A stretch of DNA of 31,481 nt from a virus, in the IMG/VR virus record IMGVR_UViG_3300045988_080512, positions 1 to 31,481 of that record, one strand, 5' to 3'. The notes under the pieces were generated by a model that was not told the origin of the DNA, made no database searches, and worked only from the letters and a program-made list of their open reading frames with translations. The first letter of the stretch is position 1. Each line of letters opens with the position of its first letter. The translations under genes and the position numbers were made by a program. This document shows positions 2,173-31,217 of this stretch, one piece after another.

Positions 2173-2199
2173 AAAAGGAGGGTTATTTGCCCTCCTTTT
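2173..2199. terminator. bidirectional rho-independent terminator at the convergent junction
   Basis: Perfect 10-bp stem AAAAGGAGGG / CCCTCCTTTT with loop TTATTTG. A T-run follows on the plus strand (CTTTTTTATT) and an A-run precedes it, which is a T-run on the minus strand. It sits between the last plus-strand ORF (ends 2169) and the end of the minus-strand HNH gene, whose last codons it overlaps. Confidence 0.65.
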
Positions 2200-2521
2200 C
2201 TTTTTTATTAAACCTTTGATAATTACTTACTGCCGAATGTATAGCTTTATGACATACTGAACATAATGTTATCAAATCTTCCAAATGGTCTTGCTCCTCA
2301 TATAAATTGTCATACCTCTTATGATGTACCGATAATGACCTGTTTCCGCCTTCCTCAACGCATCAATTACAAGTTTGGCAGTGGTAGTTATCCCGCAACA
2401 AAACTTGCTCTCTAATCGCCTTAAATTCCTTTGAGCGGATATATCTCTGGTACTTTAAATATTCTTCACTTCTTACTTTCCTCTTAGTCTTATGAAGCAA
2501 TTTACTTGATTTGGAATCCAT
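2183..2521 (-). CDS. HNH endonuclease (112 aa), last gene of the minus-strand block
   Basis: ATG 2519-2521 lies 2 nt after the endolysin TAA; the gene ends at TAA 2183-2185. Motifs: CQTCN-TGA-C ... SVHHKRYDNLYEEQDHLEDLITLCSVCHKAIH (Cys box plus HH...CxxCH). One in-frame TGA at 2363-2365. Absent from the supplied track because TGA splits it. Confidence 0.7.
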
Positions 2522-4219: not shown

Positions 4220-4909
4220 TTACTTACTCTTTTTATTATTACTTGAAGGGAAATCATAAGCTCTTTGAAGAGGTCCCTCTCCAGGTTTAATGCTCCATCC
4301 CTTACCTCTTGCTCCACCAAGCCAAATATTGCAAGATGAGCTAGAATAAAGATTGGGAAACATATCCTTTAATGGCTTATATGTATAAAGCTCAGGGAAT
4401 TCATTATAATATGTAATTATAAAGTCCTGTAAACGAGTCTTAAAGAAATCCGCCTTATCTCTATAATACTTCTTAATTTGATTTACTTGACTTGCTTCAG
4501 CAGCAATATCTTTCTCATCATCAGTTCTCATAACTCCAAAATTACCAAGCTTATAAGATATAGGAATTACTATCTCGCTAAGTACTTGATAAAGTAAATA
4601 AGGCTGAACATAATAGTCTAATAGCTCTTTATATCTGTAGTTATCAGAATCATCAATAGAATCACTTGGAAGTGGCTCAGGAGGTTCTATTGGATGAACT
4701 GGAGTATGAGGATCAATCCAATTAATACATTTCTTTTGTAATGCTTCCAATAGCTTAGTACCAATAGTTGACTGAAGTTCTACATCTTGGGCACTTGTGA
4801 TGGCTGCTTGTAAATATTTACCCGATATATTGTTATCTAATGTAGAATTTGACTTTATATAGTCTTCTGAAATAAGCAGTACATTTCTATAGTTAAGTTG
4901 TTCCATCAT
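4220..4909 (-). CDS. hypothetical virion (head completion/connector region) protein
   Basis: 229-aa ORF ending in TAA, with no TGA. Its start overlaps the end of the GIY-YIG gene by 17 nt. The call is positional only. Confidence 0.55.
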   Translation of the reverse strand: MMEQLNYRNVLLISEDYIKSNSTLDNNISGKYLQAAITSAQDVELQSTIGTKLLEALQKKCINWIDPHTPVHPIEPPEPLPSDSIDDSDNYRYKELLDYYVQPYLLYQVLSEIVIPISYKLGNFGVMRTDDEKDIAAEASQVNQIKKYYRDKADFFKTRLQDFIITYYNEFPELYTYKPLKDMFPNLYSSSSCNIWLGGARGKGWSIKPGEGPLQRAYDFPSSNNKKSK

Positions 4910-5501
4910 AAATAAATTTATTGTTTTTATAAGGTCTATTTTCTTTTAAAGCTAAATATAATCCAGAACGTTCTCCATTAACTGATTTAACAGCTTCTTT
5001 CATTGAATTATATCTTGCAATAAAATTCCCATTCATATCAAATCTTAATATAGGCTTAACTCTAGTAATTCGTCCTTTGGAAGCATTTCCAATTTTAATA
5101 AGTGTTTCCAAAGTATAGATTCCTTTCTTTCCTTTATTCCAGGGTGTTTTACCTTTTTTAGAATTTGACATTTTTGCTCTACTCTCATTAGAAAAAGAAT
5201 ACCCGTATGTACCTTCTCCTCCTGATGTTATATTGTAACCATTTTCAGGAGTATTTGTTTTATATTTATGTATCAATATCCTTTCTAATGTCTTAGCACA
5301 AGCTTCTGGTAAATTATCTTTAATTATGATATGTTCAAATCCATCTCAGCTATATTTTTGTATCGCTTTATAAAAGTAAGCTTGAGTAGAGTATCCATAT
5401 CCATTTTTTCACCTAGCTTGCACACTTTGTCCAGTAATGCCAAAATATAGCTTATTGTTATACTTATTTATATGGCAATAAACAGTATAATTATTCAACA
5501 T
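4893..5501 (-). CDS. GIY-YIG homing endonuclease with NUMOD3-like and C-terminal DNA-binding region (202 aa)
   Basis: Track ORF 4893..5276 extended upstream through TGAs at 5346 and 5409 to ATG 5499-5501. N-terminus: MLNNYTVYCHINKYNNKLYFGITGQSVQAR-W-KNGYGYSTQAYFYKAIQKYS-W-DGFEH, giving the GIY...YxG...RW...KYxWxxF pattern. GKTPWNKGK is NUMOD3-like. Confidence 0.85.
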
Positions 5502-6582
5502 TTTGTTTGCTATCTTCTTGTCCATTTGGAGTTAAGCTAAAAGGAGTTATAGTTATTGAACCTTTCATTCCAAATATCTTATCAAATGTATCTACTATTT
5601 CGACCTGAATTGGTCTAACTACTGTACGATTATAAAGTTTAAAAGCTTCATTAAATTCTTGTTCGTTGAATCCACTTGAGTAGTTAAGGCCAAAAAGTAC
5701 ACTATTAGCTCTAAATGCGCAGAATATCTGTTCTCTTGTCCTATCAGATAAAGCACTATATTTCTCATCAAAATCATCAGAGTCTAAACGCTCAATAGTA
5801 GTCTTATTTGTTTCATCATCATTATATGAAATAAGAACTCTGCCAGCATTTTGAAATCCTGAGAATTTCTCATTAATATTCATCTCAATCTCTTCTTTAA
5901 CTTCATCTGTAGGCTGTCCATTATTAAAGTTAATGATAAGATTACCCATAAATCCATTATGAAGAGAATTTAGATGGAACTCATTAATATTCTTCTCAGT
6001 TTCGCAAGATAAGATAGCTGCACCATAAACAGGGACTGGATATACTTTTCTTGTTATATAGCCCTTATTATAAACAACGCTTGTAGGATTATTATCTGAA
6101 TAATTAAATTTTGGATATTTGATAGCTTTAATAGACCAAGCAGACCAATCATCAGCATAATAGAATACTTCATTTTTTTCATCAGAACGAATCTTCATAA
6201 AGTCAAGATGATATATTTCTGAAACTCTACCTACCATATCTCTAATTACTTGGATAGCATAACCTCCAAATATCATCTTATCTTTAGATACTTTACGCAT
6301 AATATCCATAATAGTTTCACCTTTCTTATTTACAGTTACTTCAAATCCTGGTGCATTACATATAACATCATTACCAACAATAAAGTCAGCAGTCCCATTA
6401 ATGATAGATTGAAGAGTAGCTACATTTAAGTATAAATCCCATAGATATAATGGATAGCGATTATCTTCACCCCAAGAAATCCAATCAGAACCCCTTTTTC
6501 TCGATTCTACAGGAAGTACTAAATTTGACACTACAACAGGATCAATTGCACTTAATTGTACTTTTGTTTTATTTTCGCTCAT
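5491..6582 (-). CDS. portal protein (HK97/Phage_portal-type, 363 aa)
   Basis: Translation has the portal-family layout (SDWISWGEDNRYPLYLWDLY..., ...YPVPVYGAAI..., ...FSGFQNAGRVLISY..., ...REQIFCAFRANSVLFG...). The preferred start, MSENK at 6580-6582, is 14 nt inside the upstream gene. The track start 6639 would overlap far more. No TGA. Confidence 0.75.
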   Translation of the reverse strand: MSENKTKVQLSAIDPVVVSNLVLPVESRKRGSDWISWGEDNRYPLYLWDLYLNVATLQSIINGTADFIVGNDVICNAPGFEVTVNKKGETIMDIMRKVSKDKMIFGGYAIQVIRDMVGRVSEIYHLDFMKIRSDEKNEVFYYADDWSAWSIKAIKYPKFNYSDNNPTSVVYNKGYITRKVYPVPVYGAAILSCETEKNINEFHLNSLHNGFMGNLIINFNNGQPTDEVKEEIEMNINEKFSGFQNAGRVLISYNDDETNKTTIERLDSDDFDEKYSALSDRTREQIFCAFRANSVLFGLNYSSGFNEQEFNEAFKLYNRTVVRPIQVEIVDTFDKIFGMKGSITITPFSLTPNGQEDSKQNVE

Positions 6583-6961: not shown

Positions 6962-7039
6962 ATTTTGCAATAGTTTTACATTAATTTACATATCTTTTTC
7001 TTAAAATATAAACTAATTTACTAATGTATTAAAATAATT

Positions 7040-7061
7040 AAAGGAGACCTAAGCCTCCTTT
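7040..7061 (-). terminator. candidate terminator hairpin after the RBP array
   Basis: AAAGGAG / CTCCTTT 7-bp stem with an 8-nt loop, followed on the minus strand by AATTATTTT. It lies in the 153-nt gap between 7115 (gene end) and 6961 (next start). The U-tract is weak. Confidence 0.4.
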
Positions 7062-7114
7062 AATGTCAAGTTTTTTACTCACTCAAAGTACTAAGAAAAA
7101 ATAAAAACTGACAA

Positions 7115-8086
7115 TTAGTTTGAACTTGCTAAAGTTCAGTTTTTAGATGTGGCTAATGATTTCTGTTCCTCAGTAAGTGCATTATAAACGTTAGTATAAA
7201 AAGTTAAAGTTTTGGTATCCTTTCCAGTTAAATCACTAACATTTGTAATAATATCAGTTACTGATTGACTATTTAGTGCTCTAAAATTTGCTAAATTCAT
7301 ACTTTTATCAGCTCCTTCAACACCCCCAAAATAAGTAACAGTAGTATTAGCAGATGCACATATTGAAATTTTATTTAGATCTTCTGTTAATGTGCAATTA
7401 TTTAATTTAATTTTTCCTACTGTTGTAACACCCTCATTATATGAACTAAAGTAATAATATAAAGATAGTTGTCCATTAATAACTTCAATTTCAGGAACAT
7501 TACTGCTAACAGAATAAAAGAAAAATTGTAAAGATGATACACCAGTATCAACTTCATTTATCACTTTTAAAGTAGTTGGTAAATTAGAAGCATTAAAGAA
7601 TGTTCTTGTTGCATAATTTCAACTAGAGGATGTGGTATTAATTAATTCTAAATTATTTAGTATGCCTTGAAATCCAGAAAATGCGTACGAATCCCCAACA
7701 CTAGTTCTTATATTATCAATATATATATTATATGTGTTTTGGAAGGCATATGATGCGTCATATACTTTAGACAGATCAATATGACTTGATATATCTATTG
7801 TAGATATGAAATTAGTCCCATCAAATCAATGATTTATATTATCTGGAAGAGAATATTCTATATTATTATATTGCTCTTGTGTCATACTAGAATATGCAAA
7901 TGTTAATCCATAATCATTTAAATTAATCTTTCCTCCACCACCTCCAGAAATCTGTCCTATCTTATCTGCATAGCTTCTAAAGGTATCGGAATCTGATACA
8001 GCAACACCTTTAGCTACAATAGCATCTTTAATGGCACTCTTAGTACCTTCAAGATACGTTAATTTATCAGAAATTGTATTTGCCAT
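7115..8086 (-). CDS. LRR/DUF285-like receptor-binding (tail fiber/spike) protein, paralog 3 (323 aa)
   Basis: Track ORFs 7826..8086 and 7136..7564 are in the same frame. They are joined through TGAs 7826 and 7619, and TGA 7136 is read through to TAA 7115-7117. N-terminus: MANTISDKLTYLEGTKSAIKDAIVAKGVAVSDSDTFRSYADKI. C-terminus ...KTLTFYTNVYNALTEEQKSLATSKN-W-TLASSN is homologous to ...KTLTLGATNLAKLSDEQKAIATNKNWILA of 13227..14180. Confidence 0.75.
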
Positions 8087-8087
8087 A

Positions 8088-8609
8088 TTAGATATATTTA
8101 AATTTTACCCCTTTATAAGTGTCTGTTCTTCCTTTAAGACAATCTATAACTCTACTATGAGTATACCCATCTATTGATGTTTCAATTGCATTTTTATATG
8201 TTTTAACTAGTAAATCATTAATAAATAGCCCTACAGGTTTACTAATTTTATCAATACATCTATTTATTCTAGTTCCATATGTATTATTATACTTTGCATC
8301 ACATCATTCTAAATTTTCTACCCTATTATCTGTCTTATTTTCATTTATATGGTTAACATATGGTAGATTGTCAGGATTTGGAATAAATGCTTCTGCTACT
8401 AGTCTGTGAACTTTAATAGCTTTAGGTTTATCTAAGCCAGATACTAGAATTACATAATTATAGCCATATTTATCTATATGCTGTTTTAGCTTTTTATGTA
8501 TTTGTTTTCTGGTTCTTCCAATAGAATCTTTAAAAGTCAATGGGTTACTATATACATCTCCTGTAGAAGATACACTATAGTTAGGATAATTTGTTAATAC
8601 TCTATTCAT
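8088..8609 (-). CDS. HNH homing endonuclease (173 aa)
   Basis: Track ORF 8304..8636 extended through TGA 8304 to TAA 8088-8090. Motif: ...[31 protein letters not shown]... (classic NHIdgnktnNrveNLEW). The preferred start, MNRV at 8607-8609, lies just upstream of the preceding gene's TAG. Confidence 0.85.
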
Positions 8610-9234
8610 TTGGAATTTCACCATTAATTGTATCAAGAGTAGTTGAGATAGTTCCGATTTGTGCCTGTAAAGCTTGAATAGCAGCTTCTAATTCTGAAAC
8701 CTTAGCATTATATACTTCTAATGTTACATAATTAGATAGTTCCGATTTGTCTGCTTTATTTGCATCTAATGTCCCAACTTCCTTATCTAATGCATCAATC
8801 TTTAGTCCATCCTCTTCTTGCTTACTTTCAACAGATGCAAGCTCTTCTTTAGTAGCAAAATCCTCAGTACTTGGAATATCTGACTTGAGAGCATAGTTAG
8901 AAAGATCAATAGATAGATGTAAATCCTCACCCTCTCTATTAAATGACATAGGAGAGTTTACTTGAAATACTTCCATCTTAGATGTTTCTAATTCAGTAAT
9001 ATCATTCTTAATTGGCTCTAACTTAGGTTCAAGTATAACATCCAACTGAGAATTGATTTGCTCATCAATTATTTCAACAGCCTTATCTTCAGAAATGTAA
9101 TTACCTTTAGGTTGAAATCTTTCATCTGCTTCAATCTTAGTATAAGAACCAACAGGAAGCTGAGCTGTCTCAATACCACATTTCTTACTAACATAGAAGG
9201 TCTGAGTATTCTTAGTATTCTTTAATATAATCAT
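8602..9234 (-). CDS. coiled-coil tail fiber protein (210 aa)
   Basis: ORF ending in TAG. It shares segments with the large fiber (YALKSDIP..., [15 protein letters not shown] vs KQEEDGDKIDSLDKE). C-terminal heptad-like stretch: [33 protein letters not shown]. Confidence 0.65.
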
Positions 9235-9236
9235 CG

Positions 9237-9473
9237 TTATTTAACTTTTATTGATTCCTCATACTCTTCTAATGCTTTCTTAGCTGCTTCTTTATATTCA
9301 ATATCTTTATCAAGAGTTATTTCTCTTAGATGCTTTAAATCACAGCTTAAAGGACATATACATTCTTTAAAAGATGAATATTGTTTAATATCTAATTCGT
9401 CCTTATAGTTAGTAAGTAAATAACCTTCTTCTGGTTTTACTATTTGATATTTTTCTTTAATTTCAATTTTCAT
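9237..9473 (-). CDS. small conserved protein, paralog of 13006..13227 (possible fiber assembly factor)
   Basis: 78 aa. EEGYLLTNYKDELDIKQYSSFKECICPLSCDL aligns with DEGYFITSYKEGDDIKEYSASTILYCPLTFDI in the 73-aa ORF. Both lie between an LRR gene and a fiber gene. Function is inferred from position only. Confidence 0.55.
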   Translation of the reverse strand: MKIEIKEKYQIVKPEEGYLLTNYKDELDIKQYSSFKECICPLSCDLKHLREITLDKDIEYKEAAKKALEEYEESIKVK

Positions 9474-9475
9474 AA

Positions 9476-10390
9476 TTAACTATATGATAAAGTTCAACCT
9501 TTTGCTACTGTATTAGCTATTTGATCTTCTGTTAGTGAATCATAAACAGTCTTATTAAATACTATCGCAGGATTTTTACCTGGATCTGTATATAACCCAT
9601 CTATAATATTATTTACTGATTGTGAAGTTAACGATGGCAATCCTCCTAAATGTAAAGTATATGTTCTCATAGTTACTCCTTGCCCAATATTTGTAAATCC
9701 TCCAATATCTGTTAATAGTGTAAAATCTTTATCATTAGTATTACGCTCATCATCGGTTCCAAATAAATCAGTAAATGATGATCAATTACTTGCATCATAT
9801 TGTGGTACAGTTTTTAACCTATAACAGTATCTAAACATTTCATTTACCATAACTTTATTAGTTGTTGTAAATGTTATTTCTGGGGCAGATTCAAGATTAA
9901 TAGAATATCTAAATAAACCATAACAATCTACAGCATTAGATAGATTTAATGGTTCTATAGAAGTTGCTCTAATTCCTGATAAAGCTCCCATCATACGAGT
10001 TTTTCCAGTAAATATAGAAGGCAGTATATATGTTAATTGACTACATCCAGCAAATAAATAATATAGATCTGTATCCGTATTTTCAGATAAATACTTTTCA
10101 GCATCTATAGATGTTACTAAGCTATTTTGTAGAGTTGAGGTAGCTCTAAAAATAGATTTTTTTGGATTACTAGACTCTGGGATAATATACCAACTTGTAA
10201 CATTAGGATTATTACATTCATTAATAATAGTATTTTCACTACCAAAATATTGTCTAGATATTGACTTCCTAAATGCCTCATCTTCAAATTGAATTACTGG
10301 ACAAGGCCAGACTTTGGTACTGCCAACATAAATAGCAGTACCTTGTCTGTCACCTACATAAAATGTTTTTAAATCATCTCTAATATTCAT
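9476..10390 (-). CDS. LRR/DUF285-like receptor-binding protein, paralog 2 (304 aa)
   Basis: Track ORF 9782..10390 extended through TGAs 9782 and 9494 to TAA 9476-9478. Repeats of the type YLFAGCSQLTYI / GLFRYSINLESAPEI / EMFRYCYRLKTVP. C-terminus: ...VYDSLTEDQIANTVAKG-W-TLSYS. Confidence 0.75.
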
Positions 10391-10391
10391 A

Positions 10392-13004
10392 CTATTCTAC
10401 AATTAAATATTGAGTATTTGGATCTTTACTTGAAATAGCATCATATTCAGACTGAGTTACCACAAGAATAGTATGAACTTGTGGTTGAGTTCCACTTCCA
10501 TAAGTAACTGGATTAGAAACACTCTCAATATCTATATTTCCACTACCTAACAAGCTTTCTCCATTAACTGTCTTGATATTTGTTCCGCTAACTAAAGAGT
10601 CTTGTTTATTTCCTAATCCCGCATTTAATTCAGTTTCTGTAACATATTCATCAGGAATAGAAGTTAAAAAGCCACTATCGTTAGTAAGCTCAGATGTCTT
10701 AGTTGGTATACCTAAATCCTCAAGACTCTTATTACCACTAAGTTCAACAGAATTAATCTGAGGTTTATTTGTTAACTGAGTATAGTCAGTAGTCCCTCCA
10801 CCTCCAGATATTTCAAGATTACCTTCTCCTAAAATACTTTCACCATTAATAGTCTTTATATTAGTACCAGAAACTAGTTGCTCTTGATAACTATGATAAC
10901 TAGTATCTGCTGATACTCCAGTTGGAGTAATAGTAGTTTGAACTACAGTATGATTAGCTGTAGTACTTTCAAAATGGAAAGTAGCTTGAATATTTTCTCC
11001 TGAAACAAAACATACTTCTGGAGCTGCTATATCACCATAACCTAGAATATTTACATAATAAAGCTCAAATGGTGTTTTATTAGCTATAGCATTCTTAACA
11101 GCAGCGAAATCTCCAGAAAGATGAGTAGTGGAATTTATAAATAGAAATGGAATATTAGAACCACTTTCAATTTCTATATTACCTTCTCCAAGTAAAGACT
11201 GACTATTGATTGTTTTGATATTAGTTCCACTTACAAGCAAATCTTGCTTAGTAGCCATCTCTTTATCAAGAGAATCAATCTTATCTCCATCTTCTTCTTG
11301 TTTTGTTTTAATAATTGATATATCTGAAGTATTAGTTGCTACTTGAGTAGATAAAGATTCTACTACAGAAGAATCTGCTTTACCTGCAAGTTCTATTTTT
11401 GTTGCATAATCTCCTACAGGCTGTTTAGTAGCAAGCTGCTCATCAACATAAGTCTTATCTGCTTTACCTGCTAAATCTCCAGAAACCTCTGTTTCAGTTA
11501 CAAAGTTAGAATCATTAGTAAGCTCACTAACTTTAGTTGGAATATCACTCTTTAAAGCATAATCTCCTTTATCTTGTTTTGCATCAATCTTACTTTGTAA
11601 AGAAGATCTTAGAGTCTCAATTTCCTCATTAACTGAATCGTTAGTTGCATAATCACCAACTGGTTGGTATCCAGATAAATCTACAGATAACTGAGTCTTA
11701 TCTCCATTAAAAGCTAATGGAGCTTGAGGAGCAAATACTCCTTGTTTTTCCTCAAGTTTGGCATCTACTTCTTCTTTAGTATATCCTTTATTAGTAAGAT
11801 CAACCTCAGTAACTTTAACAGTCATATTACCATTATTTACTAAGATTGCATTAATAACTACTAATACACCATTATCTTGGAAATAATAGCCATATAAATC
11901 AATAGTTTCGGGATGCTCAATAGTTGCAACAGGAATAACTATAATATCACCTTTATATGTAATCTGGCAGAATAAATAGAAGTCCAGATTAGTTCTAATA
12001 AAGTCATAGATATGTTTCTGTCTTACAGGATCATTCTCATCTAAATTAAGTAAGAAATGATTCTCAAAAGCAGAGATTACATTATCTATAATAGATATAT
12101 TCTTTCCTGCTGTAAGCGTTTCCTGTTTTGAAGCTATCTCTTTATTAATAGCTGTATTTAAAGCATCAATTTCAGCTTTGGTATATTTATCTGCTAATTG
12201 TGCATATAGAGGACCATTAACAATACCAGCTTGGTTAGTCTCTGTATTATATATTGGAAGTTCAACTGCTTCTCCAGTTTGATTACCAAATACAGGAGCT
12301 AAAGTAACTTTAGATGGGACTGATTGAATATTAATGGCAGGTACGATTGAAGCTGCTCCAGATAATTCAGTTCCATTTAAAGATGGTTTGTTACGAATAG
12401 TATTATAATCTGCAGAAATAGTATTCTCTTCAATTACTATACCATCACCTTGGTTTAATTTATTCTGTTTAGAATTTAATGCACTTTCAGTAGCTTCTTT
12501 TGTAAGATAATTATCTTCAACTCATTTTTCAGTAGCATATCCATCTAAGCTACTAATAAACCCACTATCATTAGTTAATTGTGAAGTTTTTGTTGGTATC
12601 TCAGATTTATCGGCTTTATTGGCAACTGCATCTGAAATTTCAGTTGTAACCTCTTCTTTAGTTGGATAATCAGCTAATCGTTCAGTTATCTGATTATCAA
12701 TATTTTCAGCACTTGGAATAGTACTCTTTATTTGCTCTAACTCAGAATTAATAGTAACAATATCTTCAGATGACGCTAATCCCAACTCTTCCGAAGTCAT
12801 ATTACCATTTAACTCAATACTATTGATCTCAGGTTTATCCTGAAGATCAAAATAGCTATTAGTAGCTAACTGAGAACCATCCATAACCTTAACTTCATCA
12901 TCCTTGTCAATAACAATAACTTTAGTCACATTTGACTTATCTATTGTTTCGACTTCAAGGATATTAAGATAAGGAAGAATTGTCTTTTCAGTTTCGTTTG
13001 CCAT
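10392..13004 (-). CDS. large tail fiber protein (870 aa)
   Basis: Track ORFs 12522..13004 and 10392..11825 share a frame. The 232 codons between them (11826-12521) contain no stop and no ATG, and the only break is TGA 12522. Ends in TAG. Repeated motifs: NKPxINSxELxGN, TK(T/V)S(E/Q)LTNDS(G/N)F, LVSGTNIKT(I/V)N. Confidence 0.75.
10524..11237 (-). repeat. three in-gene copies of a 24-aa fiber repeat (LVSGTNIKT[IV]N[GS][EQ]S[LI]LG[ES]GN[IL][ED]I)
   Basis: The copies are encoded at 11166..11237, 10806..10877 and 10524..10595 inside the large fiber gene. Read directly from the translation. Confidence 0.7.
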
Positions 13005-13005
13005 A

Positions 13006-13227
13006 TTATTTATTTTTATAAGATTCCTCTTGTTCTTTTAAATATCTTTCATTTGTTTCTGCATCAATAACCCTATAAATAGATATATCAAAGGTTAAAG
13101 GGCAATATAAAATAGTTGATGCACTATACTCTTTAATATCATCACCTTCTTTATATGAGGTAATAAAATATCCTTCATCAGAGTATAACTTTATAAATAT
13201 GCTAGTTTCAATATGTAAATGTTCCAT
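13006..13227 (-). CDS. small conserved protein, paralog of 9237..9473
   Basis: 73 aa, ending in TAA. Its ATG overlaps the upstream TAA (TAATG at 13225-13229). See 9237..9473 for the alignment. Confidence 0.55.
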   Translation of the reverse strand: MEHLHIETSIFIKLYSDEGYFITSYKEGDDIKEYSASTILYCPLTFDISIYRVIDAETNERYLKEQEESYKNK

Positions 13228-14180
13228 TATGCTAATATCCAGTTTTTATTAGTAGCTATTGCTTTCTGTTCATCTGATAATTTTGCCAGATTGGTAGCTC
13301 CTAATGTTAAAGTTTTGCTATTCTCCCCTGTTAAATCAACTAATGCATTAATAACAGACATTAAAGAATCAGTAGTAAGATTGGTACTTGCTGATAGATA
13401 TAATCCTGCTCTAAGCTCACCGTTTACTGTAAGATTAGTAATTCCACTACATTTTGAAAATATAGGATTCATTGAAATTTCTTGAGATGTGTATGATGGA
13501 ATGTTTAATGTTACATCTGTTAATCTAATGCAATCTCCAAACATATTAGTAGTAGTTACTAATTTAGGAGCGTCTAAATTAAGTGTTTTCAGGCTATTAT
13601 ATCCAGGTAAGGTACCTCTGCTAAACATATTAGACCCATCTGTTAATTCAGGCATTGGAATAGTGAATGATGTTAAATCAGCACATTCTGTAAACATATG
13701 TCTGCCATCTTCTAATTTAGGCAATTGCATAGTGAACTCCTTAATTTTTGATCTTTGACATTTATATCTTCCATCAACTAAATTTTCTCAACCTACAACA
13801 TTTGCAGGAACAGACGTTCCAGTAAACCTATATAAATTAACTACAGCTTGCGTAATATCATAAGTTGAAGAAGTTGGCACATTAATAGTAGCTTCAACTT
13901 TCTCCATAACATCATAATCTGGATCAGGTAAAATATCTATTAATCCATTAGATGTAATTGTAATCTCTTTAGTAGCTTGTACTGTAGGAACAACAACATC
14001 AACAGATACATTTACTTTCGACATACCATCATAACCCTCATCTGGAGTTACAACGAACTCAGCATTCTGAGTATATTCTACAGATTTCTCCTGTAATTTA
14101 CATTCTTGAGCAGCTAAAGCTTCAATATCTCTTGAAGTTGTATTCTTTGCTACTTCTGGTGTTGTATATTTAATAGCCAT
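13227..14180 (-). CDS. LRR/DUF285-like receptor-binding protein, paralog 1 (317 aa)
   Basis: Track ORFs 13788..14180 and 13227..13730 share a frame and are joined through TGA 13788 (...PANVVG-W-ENLVDGRYK...). Repeats: HMFTECADLTSFTI / NMFSRGTLPGYNSLKTLNL / NMFGDCIRLTDVTL. C-terminus ...ATNKNWILA has its Trp encoded by TGG. Confidence 0.75.
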
Positions 14181-14226
14181 TTTCTATAAAATATAAATAG
14201 TTAATTATCTGTCCATAAACAAAATA

Positions 14227-14254
14227 AGGGGCAAGTAAATTAATACTCGCCCCT
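14227..14254 (-). terminator. rho-independent terminator after the capsid operon
   Basis: On the minus strand: AGGGGCGAGT-ATTAATTT-ACTTGCCCCT (GC-rich stem, one mismatch) followed by TATTTTGTTT. It lies in the 83-nt gap between 14264 (gene end) and 14180 (next start). Confidence 0.7.
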
Positions 14255-14263
14255 CTTCTGTTG

Positions 14264-14788
14264 TTAAGCACCTACAACACTTTGAATAGCTTCAGCACTC
14301 AACTCATAAGGATATGATTCAGAGTCAGTAGCTAAAGTCAGCGTATAAGCGTTCTGATCACCTTTTGCAGTACCAGTAACACCCGTACCAGCGGAAGCGC
14401 TTACATAGTCATCTTTTCCTAAGAACCAGTATTTGCCATTAGAATCTTCTACAACAACTACAAGTTGTCCAATAGAAAGAGCAGCAATCTCGATTCTTTT
14501 CTTAGTCTCCATCTTTGTAAATACAAGAGCAAGCTCATTACTTACATAGTTGGTTCCTGCAGTTTCGTCAACGTTCAATGTTGAGGTTAGAGAACCAGTA
14601 CCTTTGCGGAATTGGTAATTATACCATTCAGCATCTGCCTCAAGAGTAATAGCTGAGATTTGATTAGTCTCATCATCTACAGTTACACTCTTAACATTAT
14701 CGTACTGAGTAATCCATACCTGTTTGATACCACCAAGCGAAGATTCGCAATCCAGGGTAATACCAGCGATAGTTATTAAACAAGCCAT
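14264..14788 (-). CDS. abundant virion structural protein (possible major tail/tube or head decoration protein, 174 aa)
   Basis: ORF ending in TAA, immediately after the MCP gene and immediately before a strong terminator. It is visibly more G/C-rich than its surroundings and has no TGA. Family not recognised with certainty. Confidence 0.55.
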   Translation of the reverse strand: MACLITIAGITLDCESSLGGIKQVWITQYDNVKSVTVDDETNQISAITLEADAEWYNYQFRKGTGSLTSTLNVDETAGTNYVSNELALVFTKMETKKRIEIAALSIGQLVVVVEDSNGKYWFLGKDDYVSASAGTGVTGTAKGDQNAYTLTLATDSESYPYELSAEAIQSVVGA

Positions 14789-14826
14789 ATAATTTCAATC
14801 TTATTTAAAGTTAAACTCTATTGAAA

Positions 14827-15729
14827 TTAGGCTTTGGCACCAAGAACTACCTCATCAGGGAATGCAACCTGTACGCCAGCGTTAAATTCAATAGCTAATC
14901 TAAATTCGCGGAAATCTTGTGAATACCACAATTCAAACTTCTCTTCATCGTTCATCATATCGCAACCATAGAAGAAGTTCTTATCTAACTGACCAGCAAC
15001 AATCTTATCAGTTCCATTAAGACCATTAACAGCGATTACTTTAACCTGCGAACCAGGAAGCATAATCTCACCATTAAGATTCTCACCACTATAGTGGTAG
15101 TAGTTCTTAGCAACTAACTCCTGGATAAATTTACGGAAAGTATCACTGCCAACTAAGATAGAAGCACCATCCAGAACCTTCTCAGGAATAGCGTTATAAA
15201 CAGCCATAATGTCATCATAAGCAGATGCTCCAGTAATTGTTACATCAACAACACCATCAGCAGCACCAAGGATCTTTAACAGACCATCAAAATACTTCAG
15301 GTTATTTGTTTCAGAAGTAGTATCACCCTGCCAAATAGCAGTCTCAATAGCAGCCTTAACATTCTCAACTACTGCATTTACGAAATCCTCTTCAAAAGGA
15401 AGCGTCTTCTGACCAGCAGCTACTCGTACTTGATACTGAGTCCAGTATTTAAGCATCTCTTTATCACAATATGCCATATTGATCTTAATATTACCAGTAG
15501 CCAGAATTCTCTGAGAAAGAGTCTGAGTTCCAGCTTCATCCCAACCACAAGCTAGGCCATCGCCAAACTGAATAGCAGTTGATAACAGGTTAAGAGCAGC
15601 ACTAGTTTTGATGTCAGTTTGAAGATTGAACAACGAAGCACTCTTAGCCTTTAATACAGCCTCTTTTATCAATGGAAGCCTGCGCTGTTCTACGTAACTA
15701 GTTAAACTCGTCATTACGGGGTTTGCCAT
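14827..15729 (-). CDS. major capsid protein (HK97-fold type, 300 aa)
   Basis: Follows the protease and scaffold genes. The sequence (MANPVMTSLTSYVEQRRLPLIKEAVLKAKS...FELWYSQDFREFRLAIEFNAGVQVAFPDEVV) has the layout of small HK97-like MCPs. Visibly higher G/C than surroundings. 4 Trp, all TGG; no TGA. Confidence 0.75.
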   Translation of the reverse strand: MANPVMTSLTSYVEQRRLPLIKEAVLKAKSASLFNLQTDIKTSAALNLLSTAIQFGDGLACGWDEAGTQTLSQRILATGNIKINMAYCDKEMLKYWTQYQVRVAAGQKTLPFEEDFVNAVVENVKAAIETAIWQGDTTSETNNLKYFDGLLKILGAADGVVDVTITGASAYDDIMAVYNAIPEKVLDGASILVGSDTFRKFIQELVAKNYYHYSGENLNGEIMLPGSQVKVIAVNGLNGTDKIVAGQLDKNFFYGCDMMNDEEKFELWYSQDFREFRLAIEFNAGVQVAFPDEVVLGAKA

Positions 15730-15743
15730 ACTTAAAAATTTTT

Positions 15744-16382
15744 TTAATTGTTATACTTAAATATTTTACCTTTATGCTGTTTATATTTTCCGTTTAATAC
15801 TCTAAGAATAGAGCTTTTACAGTATCCATCTAAAACAGCATTTTTAATTGAAGGATAAGTTTTAATTATATTTCCTTCTAAATCTAGCATAATGATTGAT
15901 TTAGTACCTTTATTTATATGAGATTCAGACATCCTTTTTCTTGTCTCTGAAGTAAACTCTCTATTTATAGCTATATTTTTAAGTCTTTCTGTAGTTTCAG
16001 CATTATATACTCCCGTTTTGTGTTTATTTCAGGGATTACGACCTTTGCAAGATTCTGATATTTTAATAGCTATTTCTGGAGTCATTCCTCCATAACCTCC
16101 TGGTTTAAGATTTAAACATCTCTTATCGGTGTTATAACAATCGCCTATAATATCAGCTTCTCTTAAAGCATTATCTTTTGAAGAATCATTAAATTCAATT
16201 ATAACTTTTCTGTAAGTAACATCTTTAATCTTGCCATATTTACTATAGTAATTAGTAAGAATAGTGCCACTTCCTGCATAGCTATTATTAAATGGATCTT
16301 CATCAGTACTATGCTTGCCTATATAGTAAGTGTTTTCCCATCCAGGCATTAAAGGCTGAATTTCATAAATATAATGGTACAT
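15744..16382 (-). CDS. GIY-YIG homing endonuclease with NUMOD3 repeats (212 aa), inserted between scaffold and MCP
   Basis: Track ORFs 16029..16382 and 15744..15932 share a frame and are joined through TGA 16029 (...CKGRNP-W-NKHKTGVYNAETTERLKNIAINREFTSETRKRMSESHINKG...). N-terminus: YHYIYEI...YYIGKH. Its ATG overlaps the scaffold TAA (TAATG at 16380-16384). Confidence 0.8.
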
Positions 16383-16993
16383 TACTCAAACATTCCTTGG
16401 ATATTTTTAAGCTTTTTATCAATAACAGGATTACCAGTCATTATTGAAGCTTTGCCTTCTATCTGTTCCTCAGCTGAAAATGCAGCACTCATTTTGCTCA
16501 TCTTTTCAACCGTCTTTTCTGTAGCTTCAGATTTACCCTCTAATTCAGCTACTTTCTTAACAAGCTTATCAACAATGTCATAAAGCTCATTAATTTCGCG
16601 ATGAATTGCATCAATTGCATCAGTTACAGTTTCTTTGTCACCATCAGTAGCTACTTCAGGATCAACTGGCTCTTCAGCAGTTTCTACCTTGCGTTTTCCA
16701 CAAGCAGCATCAACTTCTGCTTTAGCTGCTTCTTCTGGATCAACCTCAGCTTTAGGATCAGTTACAGACTCTACTTTACCGTCTTTAACAACAATCGTCT
16801 TTCCATCCTCAGTTACATACTCACCATCCTCAGCAGGTTTGTATTCTCCGTTCTCATCCTGAACATATACATCCATACCAGCGCGTAAGTCTTCATCTGA
16901 ATCCCAAGTAAGTACTGCCTTATCAGTTTTAATATCACTGAACTTTGCAAGCATTTTAGCCAATTCAAGCTTGATTCTTGTGAATTTGCTCAT
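16382..16993 (-). CDS. scaffolding protein (203 aa)
   Basis: Acidic, Lys/Glu-rich, with helical heptad-like stretches (HREINELYDIVDKLVKKVAELEGKSEATEKTVEKM). Lies between the protease and the MCP. No TGA. Confidence 0.6.
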   Translation of the reverse strand: MSKFTRIKLELAKMLAKFSDIKTDKAVLTWDSDEDLRAGMDVYVQDENGEYKPAEDGEYVTEDGKTIVVKDGKVESVTDPKAEVDPEEAAKAEVDAACGKRKVETAEEPVDPEVATDGDKETVTDAIDAIHREINELYDIVDKLVKKVAELEGKSEATEKTVEKMSKMSAAFSAEEQIEGKASIMTGNPVIDKKLKNIQGMFE

Positions 16994-17006
16994 TTAATTA
17001 ATAATT

Positions 17007-17600
17007 TTAATGTTTAACTCTTTTTATCTTCTTAATCATATTAAGGATCTCTTTTATTTCGTCATATTCATCAGACTTTCTCTCTAAAGTAAATAAACCT
17101 TCAATTGAGAACCCTTTAAACTTACCAGCTTTAATTGCATCTCAAATAACTTGATTATCTACTTTATAAGTGGCAAATAAAGAACCATCAGGAACATCCT
17201 GGAATTCAACTGGAGATATTCCTCTATTAATATCCTTTACATAGATTTCTTGTAGAGTAATTCCATTTAAATCAGAATCTTCTAAATGTTCAATATTTAC
17301 ATCTGTAGTTCTCTTATCATACAGCATCTTCTCTGCCATTTTACGAAGAGTTTCCTTATCATACTGTATGTAGTATTCTCCGAGTTTCTCATCTCGTCTG
17401 AAAATTGGAGTATCACTTAACATTAAGCAAGATGTTACTAAATGCTTATCTTCATCCATCGAGAACTTCTGAGAATTACTAAAAGCAACCCAGTTAACTT
17501 GTGTAGCTGGTTTACTTGTTAAAGCAACATATTCTATTCCATCACAATCATCAGTAATCACTGCCTGAAATAATGGAAGATCATTATAAGTAATTTCCAT
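17007..17600 (-). CDS. XkdF-like putative prohead protease (197 aa)
   Basis: Track ORF 17142..17600 extended through TGA 17142 to TAA 17007-17009. The junction reads ...ATYKVDNQVI-W-DAIKAGKFKGFSIEGLF..., the conserved W..ik.G...GfSieG block of the XkdF family as I recall it. Confidence 0.6.
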
Positions 17601-17652
17601 TTTTATTAATATATAGCACTTTATAAATTTGTAATATTTTTAGAATATCTAA

Positions 17653-17702
17653 TGTAACCTTTTTACTCATATTTTGTAGTTAATAAGAATAAAAAAGTTA
17701 CA
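17653..17702 (-). repeat. 50-nt conserved hairpin element, copy B (matches 26581..26630 when read on the minus strand)
   Basis: Minus-strand reading: TGTAACTTTTTTAT-TCTTATTAACTACA-AAATATGAGTAAAAAGGTTACA. The flanks (14 nt and 22 nt) are identical to copy A and the central 14 nt diverge. It lies in the 112-nt gap between 17713 and 17600. Confidence 0.6.
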
Positions 17703-17712
17703 CTAAATATTT

Positions 17713-20481
17713 TTAGAATGAAGCATTAGATTCAGTAACTGCTACCTTAGTTTGAGCTGAAGTAATGTCAGATTCAACAACATAACACTTAACAGGTTCA
17801 TTTAAAAGGTCAGTTTCTTTATCTCCAAGTAAGTTTCGAGTATATTCAACAGGAGCTGTATTTAAAGCAGCTGGTGCTGCCACTGCTGCAGATGCTCCAC
17901 TCACTCCACTTGCACCTGATTCATCTACTTCTCAAATCTTTTTAACATTTGCAATACCTGCAACTACTGCGGCTGCAGCTGCAGCAATACCTAAAGCAGG
18001 ACCTACAATAGGAATTCCTGCCATAGCAGAGTATGCGCTATTTGCTGCTGAATAAGTGTCAATTAAAGCTTGTGCAGTAGCAAATCCTTTTCCAACTTTA
18101 CTCTCTTCTCCCCAAATACTCGCCATACTTCCTGCAATGCTTGAAGCTACAGATAAAGTTCCCTGTAAAGCTTGCTGTCTTGCTTTTTGAAGATTTTGAT
18201 AAGCCTGAGTATTTGCCTGTTCATTAGCTAATTGAGCATCTGATAAGGCCATATTATTCTCAGTAAGAGTTCTTTGAATTTCCTCTTTTTGTTCAGCAGT
18301 TAATTGTTCATTCATTAATTGCTGATTTAATAAGGCATTCTCTTGCTCTATTCTACCTTGAGTTAATGAGAGTAAGTTGTTATTGTATTCAATTTGAGCA
18401 TTGTATTGATTCTCTAAGTCCTCTCTACTCTGATATGTAAATTTATAACCAGTCCCTTCATAATCTCCAGCCAATCCAAATGCTTTCGATATACCTTGAG
18501 TATAAGTAGTCTGAAAGGTCTGCTCTCTTGGCTCTCTCAAATTACTTGTAGAAGATAAATCTCTAATCCTTTTTAATTCAGACTGTAGATCATTCCAAGC
18601 TTTATCTGCATCTTCCTTACGCTTAGCTTCTTCATCAGCTCTAGCTTTATCTCTAATCTTTTTAAGCTCTTCCTGATGCCAAGCTTCTACCTCTTCAATT
18701 CCCCTATTATACTTAATAGCTAATGCTAATAGTCTAATATATTCATCTTCAAGTTCATCTACTGGGTCTTTATCCTCTAATCTCTTTTGAAGCCATTCAT
18801 CAAATTCATTAATTACCTTCTTAGCTTCAGTAGTGTTCTTTGTAATAGTTGGAATATTAAAGAATCCACCATACTTTTTATTAATATCTGCTACATCCTC
18901 AAATAGCTTTCTAAGCCTTTTCTCAATGTCTTTATTTAAATCATCCAACTGTTTATAAGTATTCTCTTTATTTTGCTTTGTATACTCATAAATTGTATTT
19001 GAATAATCTTTTCAGAACATTGCTGTAGCTTTAAAAGCCTGCCAAGCAGATGCCTCTCCAAAGCTTGTATCAGAAATTTGATTCTCCAGTTCAGTACGTT
19101 TGTTTAAATACTCCTCATAAAGTTTAATTGCAGCCTGTTCAATAGCCTGAGCTTTTGCTCTTGCACTTAATGCTTCTACATAATTACCAGTATTATTTAC
19201 AAACGCATCTTCTGCAGTCTTTACATTAGTAATATTTAAACCAGTCTCTTTAATCTTATCTGAATATTGCTCTATAAACTTACGCTTAGCATCTGCAGAA
19301 TCTCCAACCCTTTCGTAAGCTATTTGTAACTCTCTAAAGATAGCTATAGATTTAGAAGCAATCTGATTAGTAGTATCTGTAATAGACTTTCTAAATTCAG
19401 CAGCCTCCTTTTCAGCTGATTTTATTGAGGATATATACTCTATTATCTTATTAATAGCTACTCCAATAGCTGTAGCTAATGCAATTCATACAGTTACATT
19501 ACCAATAGTTTTAAGTGCAGTTTTAACTTTACCTACTCCAGAAGCAGCTTGTTCTGAAGCTTCAGCCATTGCTTTCTGAGCCTCTGCTCCTTTTCGCAAA
19601 GTTGGAATGCCTTTTTCTACATTTTCCTTTAATTCATTAAGATCTACACCTAAACGTTTAGCAGCTTTCTGCATTCTCTCTGCTGGAGTTTCAGTCTCTT
19701 TTGCTGCTTCCTTTAAAAATTCAGCAACTGCAGTAAATGTAGGTTTTACTTCTTCAAAGGACTTTTTTGCAGTTTCTCCTAATTTACCTATAATCGGAAT
19801 CGTATTAGATACACTCTTATTAGTAGCAGATATTTCAGCAGGAGTGCCCATTACTCCTTGAATCATACCTCCTTTAAAATTAATATTGGTGCCTTCTAAA
19901 TCCTTGACTACTTTAGAGATATTACCTAATTCAGTTCCAACATTACCAACAGATGTGCCAATGCCATTAAGCTTAGATGCATCAATCTGATTAAGATTTT
20001 TGGCAGCATTATTCAACCCTGTATTAAATGGAGAGATAAAATCAGTTAATTTCTTAAACCAATTACCTAAAGTAGGCAATTCTTCTAATAAATCTTTTAT
20101 ACCTCCAATACCTTGTACTAATGCAATAGATGACTGTAACTTAACCATTACTTTAGTTAAATCTTCAGATTCTTTCCCAAATAAAGTAATGGCAGCTGTT
20201 GCAGCTCCATATCCACTGGCCAAACCAGTGGATATTTTAGCTACACTTTCAAACCTTTGAGCAGTAGTTCTTGAAGATCTTGCTATCTGCTCATTAATTT
20301 TATTGAATTCTGATTGTCTCTTACCAAGTAATGAAAGAGTTTCATTATATTCCTTAGTACCAATCTCTAAATCATTCAGCGAATTAGTTAATGCATCAAT
20401 ATCTTTCTTTAAAGAGTTTATTGACTTATTACTTGACTTAGTATCAATACTAATAACCTTTTTAATTTCTGTTTGTGCCAT
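17713..20481 (-). CDS. tape-measure-like protein (922 aa)
   Basis: Track ORFs 19486..20481, 17932..18948 and 17713..17904 share one frame. I checked that 18949-19485 has no TAA/TAG. The in-frame TGAs are at 19486, 19012 and 17932. Coiled-coil-rich, with Gly/Ala hydrophobic segments (GLASGYGAATAAITLFG; GIPIVGPALGIAAAAAAVVAGIANV). It could alternatively be an internal/ejection protein. Confidence 0.65.
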
Positions 20482-23400: not shown

Positions 23401-23837
23401 TATTGTAAATCAGCAAGAGTCCTAATAGTACCATCTTCTTTATATTTAAGACCATAAAAGAAATCTCCTAATCCTCCATATAAAGTAATATTATAAGTAA
23501 TAATAGCTTGTTTTATAGATATACTATTTAATTGCATATATCCAGATTCAACTAAATAGCCATTATTATAAATTCCAAAATCAACTCGTTTTGAAGGATC
23601 AAAATATACTCCAGAGAAATTACCTTCTTTTATATGGAGAAATCTATCTAATTTATAAATATCTCCAAAAATCTTATTATTATTTTTGGTACCAGGTATA
23701 GAAATCGTCTTACTAAACGAGTTCTTGACTATAGTGGGGTTTTGGAAATCCTCAACTGTATAAGTTATAGGAAGACTAATTCCCTCACTACAGTCAACCT
23801 CTTTATTTGCAATAAATAATTTAATATTCTTTCTCAT
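20481..23837 (-). CDS. very large tail/baseplate-like structural protein (1118 aa)
   Basis: Track ORFs 23307..23873, 22971..23270, 21645..21977 and 20481..20756 all share one frame. I translated every gap and found no TAA/TAG. There are ten in-frame TGAs: 23307, 22971, 22956, 22362, 21984, 21645, 21492, 21324, 21246, 20922. The start, MRKNIKLF at 23835-23837, is 1 nt after the upstream TAA. Its TAA overlaps the next ATG (TAATG). Confidence 0.7.
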
Positions 23838-23838
23838 T

Positions 23839-26021: not shown

Positions 26022-26510
26022 TTAAAAGTCTTTAAATAAATAATAATCTACTTGTCCTTGTAAGTCTTTAGTTATAGCATCATCAAGAAGTTCCATATAA
26101 TTGTTCTCTATATATTCTATAGTATTAGCAAGTGGATGTTTTCCTTGAGTTCCTTGAAGATGTATCTTTCTTCCAATTAAATATGCAAGTTGATCTACAG
26201 TAGGTAACTTGCCATTATAAGGTCTTGGAATTACTGGCTTAGTTTTAATCCAACTCTTTATATCAGATAATGGAGGAAATTTACCAGCAGCTCTGCCTTC
26301 TTCAACATATTCTCAATAATCTAATAAGCTAAAATTAACCTCATATTCTCCATCTTGAGTCTCAACTATATAGTTTAAACTATTACCTAATGCTCCAGTG
26401 TCATCAGATCTGGTTTTAACTAATTCCTGTCTATAAAGAGAAATTATAAGATCTCCTCACTTCCTTAATAGCTCACTTAAATTTGAGAACTTTAATTCTT
26501 GAATATTCAT
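26022..26510 (-). CDS. hypothetical virion protein (162 aa)
   Basis: ATG 26508-26510 to TAA 26022-26024 with TGAs at 26457 and 26313 (...SELLRK-W-GDLII..., ...FSLLDY-W-EYVEEGRAAGKFPPLSDIKSWIKTK...). Absent from the supplied track. Its stop is 2 nt from the next ATG. Confidence 0.55.
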
Positions 26511-26552
26511 TTTTGTTAAAATATATTATTTTATATATTAGTAGCTAATGAA

Positions 26553-26575
26553 AATAGGGAGGTTTACTCCCTATT
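26553..26575 (-). terminator. rho-independent terminator (usable on either strand)
   Basis: Perfect 9-bp stem AATAGGGAG / CTCCCTATT with a 5-nt loop and T-runs on both strands. It lies in the 264-nt non-coding gap between 26775 and 26510. Confidence 0.6.
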
Positions 26576-26580
26576 TTATA

Positions 26581-26630: not shown

Positions 26631-26774
26631 GTTAATGTTTTCTTTTTCATTCTTCAATCTGTCTATTTTCTTCATTAGCTTTATCTATAACATAGCATAT
26701 AAGATTCAGGAACTCTTTAATCTGCATATCATATATCTGATGTCAATTAAATCTGGTAACTTCACTTACCTTAT

Positions 26775-29928: not shown

Positions 29929-30220
29929 TTAACCAATCCTCTAAATTATCCGTTTGTTGTTCTAATGGCTCTTTAAATATTTCATAGTACTTTTTATATT
30001 GGTAATAGTATCTACTATTCTTAGAAAACCAATTATTCTTAAATACTCTTGTAATCCAATACTTCAGCTCATTCTTACTATCTAATGACTGAAGCTTGGA
30101 ATTAGATGTTTCCAGAAGTGCAATCAAACACATCTGGAAACAATCGTCATCCATCCCAAATTTAACCTTTAGTTCTAAGCAGAATTCATAATATTTGGTA
30201 AGTATTTCATTATTCGTCAT
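29912..30220 (-). CDS. protein resembling sigma-70/ECF region 2 (102 aa)
   Basis: DDDCFQMCLIALLET...NELKYWITRVFKNNWFSKNSRYY resembles the region 2 pattern (D..Qe....l......f..Wl..ia.N...d..R). Weak, eye-level similarity only. Confidence 0.4.
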   Translation of the reverse strand: MTNNEILTKYYEFCLELKVKFGMDDDCFQMCLIALLETSNSKLQSLDSKNELKYWITRVFKNNWFSKNSRYYYQYKKYYEIFKEPLEQQTDNLEDWLNEAED

Positions 30221-30638
30221 TTCTTATATAATTACTAAAGTCTATTTCTAATTTAATTGCTTTCTTTAAAGATAACTCTGTTTTTAAAGAGTATTTATAT
30301 TCTCCTCCAAAATCAGTTGTACTTCTTCCATATTTCATTGAATCTTTAATAAAAGCTCTTTTTACATCTTTATAAATATAAACTCCATCATCAAATATAA
30401 TGACTAATATAGAGTTACATTTACTAAGTATATCAAACTTATCCCTGTTTATAATTGTAGTTGGATATTTATCTGATTTAAATCTTCTCCTTTTAACTTC
30501 AATTATATAGTCTATATTATTCCAAGTAAATGTTCCATCATATCTGGAATAATCGTCTTTACATCATTCTATTTCTATATTATATTTATCTTTAAATAGA
30601 TTCTTTATAAAGACTAAACTTCTTATATCTGTTTTCAT
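30210..30638 (-). CDS. PD-(D/E)XK-like nuclease (142 aa)
   Basis: ATG 30636-30638 overlaps the upstream TAA (TAATG); the gene ends at TAA 30210-30212, with TGA at 30564. RYDGTFTWNNIDYIIEVKRR fits D-x13-E-x-K. Hidden in the standard code. Confidence 0.45.
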
Positions 30639-31207: not shown

Positions 31208-31217
31208 ATAATAAACT

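Follow-up and report, generated by a model that had tools for sequence, protein, structure and literature searches.

The virus record IMGVR_UViG_3300045988_080512 of IMG/VR comprises 31,481 nucleotides, and this whole stretch of DNA, referred to below as the window, is the subject of the present analysis. Its G+C content is 30%, and its long reading frames lie almost all on the minus strand. Among these are three paralogous genes, between positions 7,115 and 14,180, for proteins of probable leucine-rich repeat (LRR) type, whose common C-terminal module contains a tryptophan written TGG in one gene and TGA in the other two. A first-pass annotation, made from the letters of the window alone, took these C-termini as an internal calibration of the genetic code, with TGA read as tryptophan (Trp). 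Can three gene ends really settle a translation table? Taken alone they make thin evidence (two TGA, one TGG and three shared residues), and it is data from outside the window that settle the matter: as firmly as sequence comparison allows, TGA is read here as Trp, and only TAA and TAG serve as stops (genetic code 4).

Three paralogues with a common C-terminal module

All three genes lie on the minus strand. The first (7115..8086) encodes a BspA-like protein of 323 amino acids (aa) and holds three in-frame TGAs, at codons 87 (7826-7828), 156 (7619-7621) and 317 (7136-7138); its C-terminal module (7118..7348, minus strand), found by a profile match with the TGA masked, ends ...LTEEQKSLATSKN-W(TGA 7136-7138)-TLASSN-TAA. 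The second (9476..10390), of 304 aa, has TGAs at codons 203 (9782-9784) and 299 (9494-9496), and its module (9479..9706, minus strand), again matched by the profile with the TGA masked, ends ...LTEDQIANTVAKG-W(TGA 9494-9496)-TLSYS-TAA. The third (13227..14180) encodes 317 aa, with a weak match to Pfam LRR_5, and has a single TGA at codon 131 (13788-13790), which faces TGG in a relative that uses the standard code (locus L036). Its own module (13230..13451, minus strand) is the internal reference copy, in which Trp is spelled TGG at 13239-13241: ...LSDEQKAIATNKN-W(TGG 13239-13241)-ILA-TAA. Translation with TGA read through reproduces exactly the coordinates and C-terminal peptides that had been given for the three genes.

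The module is made up of about 70 residues and ends K-[NG]-W-[TIV]-L-[AS]. In a proper alignment, both by three-way comparison and by profile, the two TGAs and the TGG of the three C-termini share one invariant column. When the terminal Trp and the tail are left out, the 70 residues before them in the first paralogue remain significantly similar to those of the other two (BLASTP E-values of 7e-8 and 5e-10), while the second and third are linked to each other through the profile only. The window holds 1176 TGA trinucleotides on its two strands; [TI]-L-[AS] follows only two of them, those of the first and second paralogues, so that base composition does not account for the coincidence. K-[NG] precedes seven of the 1176, the same two sites among them.

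Homology had been claimed to run for 4-6 codons past the TGA. The frame does stay open for 5-6 codons, but demonstrable homology spans only three of these ([TI]-L-[AS]), the remaining 2-3 residues being lineage-specific extensions. Moreover, a short open stretch after TGA is what chance would be expected to give in a genome of 30% G+C, which tells against the argument from open tails; the internal case therefore draws its weight from the three conserved residues and from the in-frame TGAs further upstream in these genes. The placing of the TAA just before the next feature holds for both genes: TAA 9476-9478 sits 2 nucleotides (nt) before an ATG (9473), and TAA 7115-7117 precedes an intrinsic terminator (7064-7037) by about 50 nt. 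As for a demonstration of TGA as Trp without any database, the amino acid was named correctly, but three paralogues alone cannot exclude every other one.

The tryptophan column in homologous loci

Since database proteins may themselves be code-4 translations, the column was examined in DNA. Besides the window, 77 viral loci and 11 loci from bacterial genomes were fetched, translated in six frames, TGA being rendered as X, and searched with the module profile, and the loci were split by genetic code according to how well open reading frames (ORFs) of at least 150 aa cover them. The column holds TGG in 101 of the 143 module copies found and TGA in the other 42, and no other codon. The code-4 group consists of the window and loci L001-L028, L032, L033, L042, L058 and L065. 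The standard-code loci include the genome of a Bacteroides congonensis isolate and metagenome-assembled genomes of Acutalibacteraceae and Ruminococcus; here the column is TGG without exception, with two to four further codons before the stop, and in L080 the stop three codons after the module TGG is a real TGA.

Between close relatives the two codons replace one another. Orthologues of the first paralogue carry TGA (27) or TGG (12) at the codon corresponding to 7136-7138 and nothing else, and those of the second carry TGA (5) or TGG (9) at 9494-9496. A single-base swap is seen between locus L023, which reads TCT AAG AAC TGA ACA TTA GCT TCT GCA TAG, and L018 and L027, which are identical except for TGG; a second pair of orthologues differing in this way belongs to the WSINRVA family. 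The codons beyond the TGA vary synonymously (GCA/GCG for one residue, AGT/TCA for Ser), and no copy has an insertion or deletion between the W codon and the stop. In these copies the module Trp is invariant and, TGA and TGG being synonymous in this phage, the codon drifts between the two among paralogues and orthologues alike, which is what the first-pass annotation had picked up.

The protein databases tell the same story. A profile search returned 377 relatives, nearly all of which end ...LTEEQK..A..K[NG]W[TIV]L[AS] plus 0-3 residues, with three ending '...SKN'. When the last 69 aa of the third paralogue (13230-13436, the TGG copy) were used as a query against 1.84 billion representative proteins, 3626 representatives were found at E<=1e-3; of the best 147 of them, 144 close with exactly three residues after the W; in two others Tyr takes the place of Trp, and the last one terminates immediately ahead of it. 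Homologues thus do not end before the W as a rule: nearly all of the best ones continue, and the short ones are gene calls made with code 11. Four database proteins (P0090, P0091, P0093 and P0122) are cut exactly at the module TGA by standard-code gene calling. At 3880-3906 of L089 the DNA reads AAC TGA ACT TTA GCG TCA GTA TAA, and the corresponding protein call, made with code 11, is likewise truncated.

TGA throughout the window

With TGA read through, ORFs of at least 150 aa cover 0.84 of the window, against 0.59 without readthrough and 0.60 when TAG is read through instead. In-frame TGAs number 41 and occur in 19 of the 37 genes (51%), evenly spread along them, with two in the last 12 codons. 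Trp makes up 1.14% of residues if TGA is counted and 0.73% if it is not. The resulting code-4 genes tile the minus strand with small gaps, and those of 323 and 317 aa have the lengths of full-length database homologues. Their stops are 33 TAA and 4 TAG, a count that follows from the gene calling and is not in itself evidence.

The proteins of the window were also aligned to those of all loci with TGA masked. At some 480 aligned positions, window TGAs face TGA 284 times, TGG 98 times, Phe codons 37 times, Tyr codons 7 times and Gly codons twice, and the window TGGs have the same substitution spectrum. Against the standard-code loci only, TGG is by far the commonest codon (31 of 87), Gly never occurs (0 of 87) and Cys occurs in 2 of 87. 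Further TGAs fall on known or paralogous tryptophans. The masked TGA of the HNH gene at 8088..8624 (codon 107, 8304-8306, in an NLxW motif) faces the Trp of the NLRW motif of I-HmuI (PDB 1U3E). A pair of paralogues with the NUMOD3 motif P-W-NK has TGG at 5139-5141 (gene 4893..5525) and TGA at 16029-16031 (15744..16382), and a pair of GIY-YIG paralogues sharing R-W has TGA at 5409-5411 (4893..5525) and TGG at 31302-31304 (the plus-strand ORF that runs from 31215 to the end). No evidence against the reading of TGA as Trp was found.

Might the near-3' TGA nevertheless be a real stop in two of the LRR genes, with proteins ending ...SKN and ...AKG and the next 5-6 codons an untranslated spacer? At 30% G+C a short open stretch is expected after any stop, and the gene calls of the four truncated database proteins do end there; these, however, are cut exactly at such a TGA, as standard-code calling would cut them. 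The idea can hardly be credited when homology runs on for hundreds of codons past other TGAs of the same two genes (codons 87, 156 and 203), when the W column is TGG in the majority of copies, all standard-code copies included, when the T-L-A/S that follows is kept through synonymous changes with no indels before the stop, and when a structural model (described below) places the residues after the TGA in the last beta strand. Next to nothing speaks for a different amino acid either, be it glycine (code 25, used by Gracilibacteria/Absconditabacteria and their phages), cysteine or selenocysteine. The low G+C and the few Shine-Dalgarno motifs would suit hosts from these candidate phyla, and the three paralogues by themselves would leave room for such a reading, but the alignments do not: glycine codons face TGA at 2 of about 480 positions and never in standard-code relatives, cysteine codons do so at only 2 of 87 positions in those relatives, and what faces TGA (TGG, followed by Phe and Tyr) matches what faces the window TGGs, with Tyr in the W column of two module homologues as well. 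For selenocysteine, 41 TGAs in 19 genes are far too many, and Rfam gives no match to a selenocysteine insertion sequence (SECIS).

A further idea, that the near-terminal TGAs undergo regulated readthrough and give two forms of each protein, was rejected in view of the TGAs that lie far upstream in these genes.

Fold and family of the LRR proteins

An AlphaFold2 model was made of database protein P0001, which is 99% identical to the first paralogue. The model (mean predicted local confidence, pLDDT, 91.7) has an N-terminal helical part and then a run of short repeated strands in a predicted beta-solenoid. Its C-terminal unit is made of a helix (273-282), a strand (292-297), two helices (298-302 and 306-314) and a last beta strand (317-322), which is opened by W317, the module Trp; this strand probably belongs to the unit that closes the domain. 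A Foldseek search of the model against BFVD gave five matches at E<=1e-3, two of them phage BspA-family LRR proteins (E 3e-4 and 6e-4). Homologues at 31-45% identity carry Pfam PF13306 and PF03382 (LRR_5, DUF285) and NCBIfam TIGR02167 (PARCEL repeat).

The label 'LRR/DUF285-like' of the first-pass annotation was thus right in kind, but the proteins of the window themselves lie below the Pfam thresholds. Scans of all three against Pfam, PHROG and NCBIfam returned almost nothing: the third paralogue scores 20.4 bits with LRR_5 against a cut-off of 27.7, and the first and second score nothing. Foldseek matches in the PDB were all LRR proteins, none of them significant (best E 0.46). These results count against the assignment, which leans on the homologues and the model; by these, the three LRR proteins are best described as predicted BspA-like solenoids. 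The module itself (...LT[ED]EQK..A..K[NG]W.L[AS]) and the 50-residue N-terminus of the first paralogue have no match in the Pfam, PHROG and NCBIfam scans.

The LRR cassette

With an intrinsic terminator at each end (14255-14226 upstream and 7064-7037 downstream, both on the minus strand, the sequence flanking the latter being kept in L089), the minus-strand region 14180-7115 looks like one transcription unit. Read from its upstream end, the region begins with an LRR gene for 317 aa, a gene for a small protein of 73 aa and a fibre gene for 870 aa, a cassette that is duplicated in the next three genes (LRR, 304 aa; small protein, 78 aa; fibre, 210 aa). Downstream of the two copies come an inserted HNH gene and the LRR gene for 323 aa. 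The small proteins of the upstream (13006..13227, minus strand) and downstream (9237..9473, minus strand) cassettes are paralogues, with 38% identity by BLASTP (E 1e-10). The 870-aa fibre-like protein (10392..13004, minus strand) contains repeats, has a TGA at codon 161 and has PHROG matches of unassigned function; its counterpart in one related locus carries Pfam Phage_tail_C. The short fibre-like protein of 210 aa (8602..9234, minus strand; PHROG match) has in common with it a stretch ...KQEEDG.KID.LDKE.... The HNH homing endonuclease gene (8088..8624, minus strand; PHROG HNH, E 4e-36) shares 23 nt with the end of the short fibre gene and is missing from several relatives.

The LRR genes are mosaic when compared with loci L016-L027, being only 38-47% identical where the neighbouring genes are 96-100% identical. 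For the first paralogue, the counterpart is 38-44% identical between flanks of 96-100%, while its first 50 residues and its C-terminal module stay conserved. This pattern suggests an exchange of cassettes, with a variable core between conserved ends. As such a core is found in near-identical genomes, the three LRR proteins are probably exchangeable, virion-borne adhesins or receptor-binding proteins. The N-terminal 50 residues of the first paralogue (7937-8086; MANTISDKLTYLEGTKSAIKDAIVAKGV...) are nearly invariant. At 51-65% identity they are also found in phage contigs that use the standard code and are much larger (25-131 kb; L041, L043-L050, L067 and L069), which suggests a shared attachment domain.

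The phage genome and its relatives

The window stems from an uncultured tailed phage of gut type, whose circularly permuted genome of some 31.5 kb it contains essentially in full. No terminal repeats were found at its ends (1-11 and 31215-31481), and its right end falls inside a GIY-YIG gene. The genes at the two ends are neighbours in relatives (L004, L009, L011, L022 and L023), with 400-900 bp between them, and the contigs of relatives are consistently 29-33 kb long; it is from this that the near-completeness and circular permutation follow.

Family scans locate the large terminase (27416-28699), the portal (5491-6582), the capsid protein (14827-15729), a probable scaffold (16382-16993), a protease-like protein (17007-17600), a long coiled-coil, tape-measure-like protein (17713-20481), two large tail proteins (20481-26019) and a neck protein (26022-26510). 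A lysin of the Peptidase_M15_3 family (2524-2976, E 2.5e-13) also matches a solved peptidoglycan carboxypeptidase (PDB 1LBU). Five homing endonuclease genes, two HNH and three GIY-YIG, are scattered over the window (2183-2521, 4893-5525, 8088-8624, 15744-16382 and 31215-31481), and several are present or absent depending on the relative. The minus-strand gap 26511-26774 (264 nt) holds a strong terminator hairpin (AUAGGGAGGUUUACUCCCUAU-like, then U's; fold z-score -3.5) and perhaps a 33-codon ORF that contains a single in-frame TGA (MQIKEFLNLICYVIDKANEENRQIEEWKRKH); folding of the gap 1731-2182 showed no structure.

By these searches, the phage has no close relative among deposited phages. In the GenBank phage collection, a megablast of 18 kb of the window (7000-25000) gave no match, nor did tblastn of the capsid protein or of the 69-aa module, and the terminase matches, all below 30% identity and to Thermus and other phages, are uninformative on the host. 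A close standard-code relative is a sister lineage (L036, IMGVR_UViG_3300029905_000019, a contig of 30.1 kb), which has 16 proteins in common with the window, the capsid protein at 67% and the portal at 50% identity. TGA occurs at none of its 31 aligned Trp codons, against 22-47% of Trp codons in the code-4 relatives.

Decoding of TGA and the host

How the phage gets its TGAs read is a separate matter. TGA makes up 36% of the Trp codons of the window, and the other NNA/NNG pairs are 63-93% A-ending. Its use is uneven: the capsid protein has no TGA and four TGG, the portal no TGA and five TGG, and one tail protein ten TGAs. TGAs are present in the genes nearest the divergent intergenic region, a likely promoter region, and that at codon 25 of 30210..30638 is conserved in all 14 relatives compared. 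The divergent intergenic region also contains TATATTTGCAC twice, in facing orientation (31115-31122, minus strand; 31190-31197, plus strand).

The host signals are few. The encoded M15 peptidoglycan peptidase implies a walled host; the only cultured relatives of the portal are in Nonlabens and Bacteroides phages, and a full-length LRR homologue lies in the Bacteroides congonensis genome. Motifs resembling a Shine-Dalgarno sequence precede only 2 of the 37 genes, whose leaders are A/T-rich. Together these hints point, weakly, to a walled host that uses the standard code and probably belongs to the Bacteroidota. Since they point to standard-code Bacteroidota, the phage would be better seen as a recoded phage of the published kind than as the phage of a code-4 bacterium, and it fits the published recoded phages of standard-code hosts because of its partial use of TGA and its close standard-code relative.

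The other possibility is that TGA is Trp in the host as well, that is, that the host is an unrecognised gut lineage with code 4, Mollicutes-like or other, and that no recoding machinery is needed. The lack of any detectable suppressor tRNA in the whole genome and in 33 related loci would then need no explanation, nor would the presence of TGA in nearly every transcription unit, likely-promoter-proximal genes included, and the lack of an apparent TGA-free early module. Such a host is nonetheless unlikely: the M15 peptidase and a nearby membrane protein indicate a wall, unlike known code-4 Mollicutes, TGA supplies barely more than a third of the Trp codons despite the dominance of A-ending codons and is used in about half of the genes, the sister lineage keeps the standard code, and the few outside links lead to Bacteroidota, which are standard-code users.

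The best explanation of the whole is a code-4 phage with a BspA-like cassette, and we give this reading a probability of roughly 0.9; a weaker part of it is that TGA would be decoded from outside the phage genome, or by a factor other than a tRNA, in a host that is probably a standard-code member of the Bacteroidota. Several results weigh against the explanation, most of them on the side of decoding, a step that has no physical basis in the sequence. ARAGORN detects no tRNA in the window or in the 33 related code-4 loci, which together span the junction absent from the window; an Rfam scan of the window at E<=1 gives no tRNA and a single small RNA match at chance level; and no release factor or Trp-tRNA synthetase was found in the scanned gene sets, several small genes being unscanned. 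A switch of code late in infection fits poorly, as TGA is present in the genes nearest the divergent intergenic region. On the host side the signals are indirect, and the Bacteroides promoter motif TAnnTTTG is not enriched in the window (41 found against 46 expected).

As there is no detectable suppressor tRNA, decoding from outside the genome, or by a factor other than a tRNA, is weakly suggested. One option would be a small phage protein that disables release factor 2 (RF2), whereupon host tRNA-Trp(CCA) could read UGA; another would be that the host strain, or some other mobile element, provides a suppressor tRNA in trans. The most specific form of this idea, in which TGA is translated as Trp as soon as infection begins, with no suppressor tRNA carried by the phage, in a walled, standard-code and probably Bacteroidota host, is doubtful; if it were true, decoding would depend on something undescribed for recoded phages.

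Significance

The literature already describes gut phages that recode TGA to Trp, and the present phage adds a lineage to them. This lineage is small and well sampled, with dozens of near-complete genomes, a standard-code sister and single-base swaps between TGA and TGG. The comparison of paralogues offers a clean, database-free way to set the translation table of this contig, and the choice is of consequence: the standard code would fragment 19 of the 37 genes, some public gene calls for relatives are truncated at the module TGA, and the protein databases accordingly hold shortened versions of these LRR proteins. Being small, apparently complete and free of tRNA genes, the genome is also a compact test case for the decoding of TGA without a phage-borne suppressor.

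Comparison with known systems

The three LRR proteins resemble the BspA-type LRR, DUF285 and PARCEL-repeat surface proteins, in that the model matches phage BspA-family proteins and the homologues carry these families. They differ from annotated members in falling below the Pfam thresholds and in having a C-terminal module without a match in the Pfam, PHROG and NCBIfam scans. There is a link to crAss-like phages through a match to a BspA family LRR surface protein of the uncultured phage cr128_1 (E 6e-4, template modelling score, TM, 0.53); a literature search for a paper on BspA proteins in crAss-like phages found none. The portal recalls that of Nonlabens phages P12024S/L and of Bacteroides phage BS-TP3 (24-25% identity over 83-90% of the query), phages whose hosts are Bacteroidota and whose genes are annotated at full length. 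They are, however, very distant from the window phage, with no match in the capsid protein or in DNA.

Like their hosts, phages of Mollicutes (Mycoplasma, Spiroplasma) use code 4. The window phage is like them in reading TGA as Trp, in its low G+C, in its small genome and in needing no tRNA, and unlike them in carrying a peptidoglycan peptidase and in using TGA for only 36% of its Trp codons. No Mollicutes phage was among the matches in the GenBank phage collection (megablast of 7000-25000 and protein searches).

The closest parallel lies in the TGA-recoded code-4 phages known from the guts of humans and animals (Borges et al., bioRxiv 10.1101/2021.08.26.457843; PMC9523058). Phages matched to a recoded host use the recoded codon in about 90% of their genes (bioRxiv 10.1101/2021.08.26.457843), while in clades that infect standard-code hosts 26-71% of genes use TGA, and a suppressor tRNA is detectable in 35% of code-4 phage genomes (Borges et al., bioRxiv 10.1101/2021.08.26.457843; PMC9523058). 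Unlike these phages, the one described here has no code-change genes in its scanned gene sets, and its TGAs are not confined to late genes. In other respects it is of their kind: in-frame TGA stands for Trp in structural and lysis genes, TGA is used in part of the genes only (51% in the window), close relatives keep the standard code and a suppressor tRNA is often lacking, and, as in their small clades of about 34 kb, the genes run in one direction and there is a GC skew.

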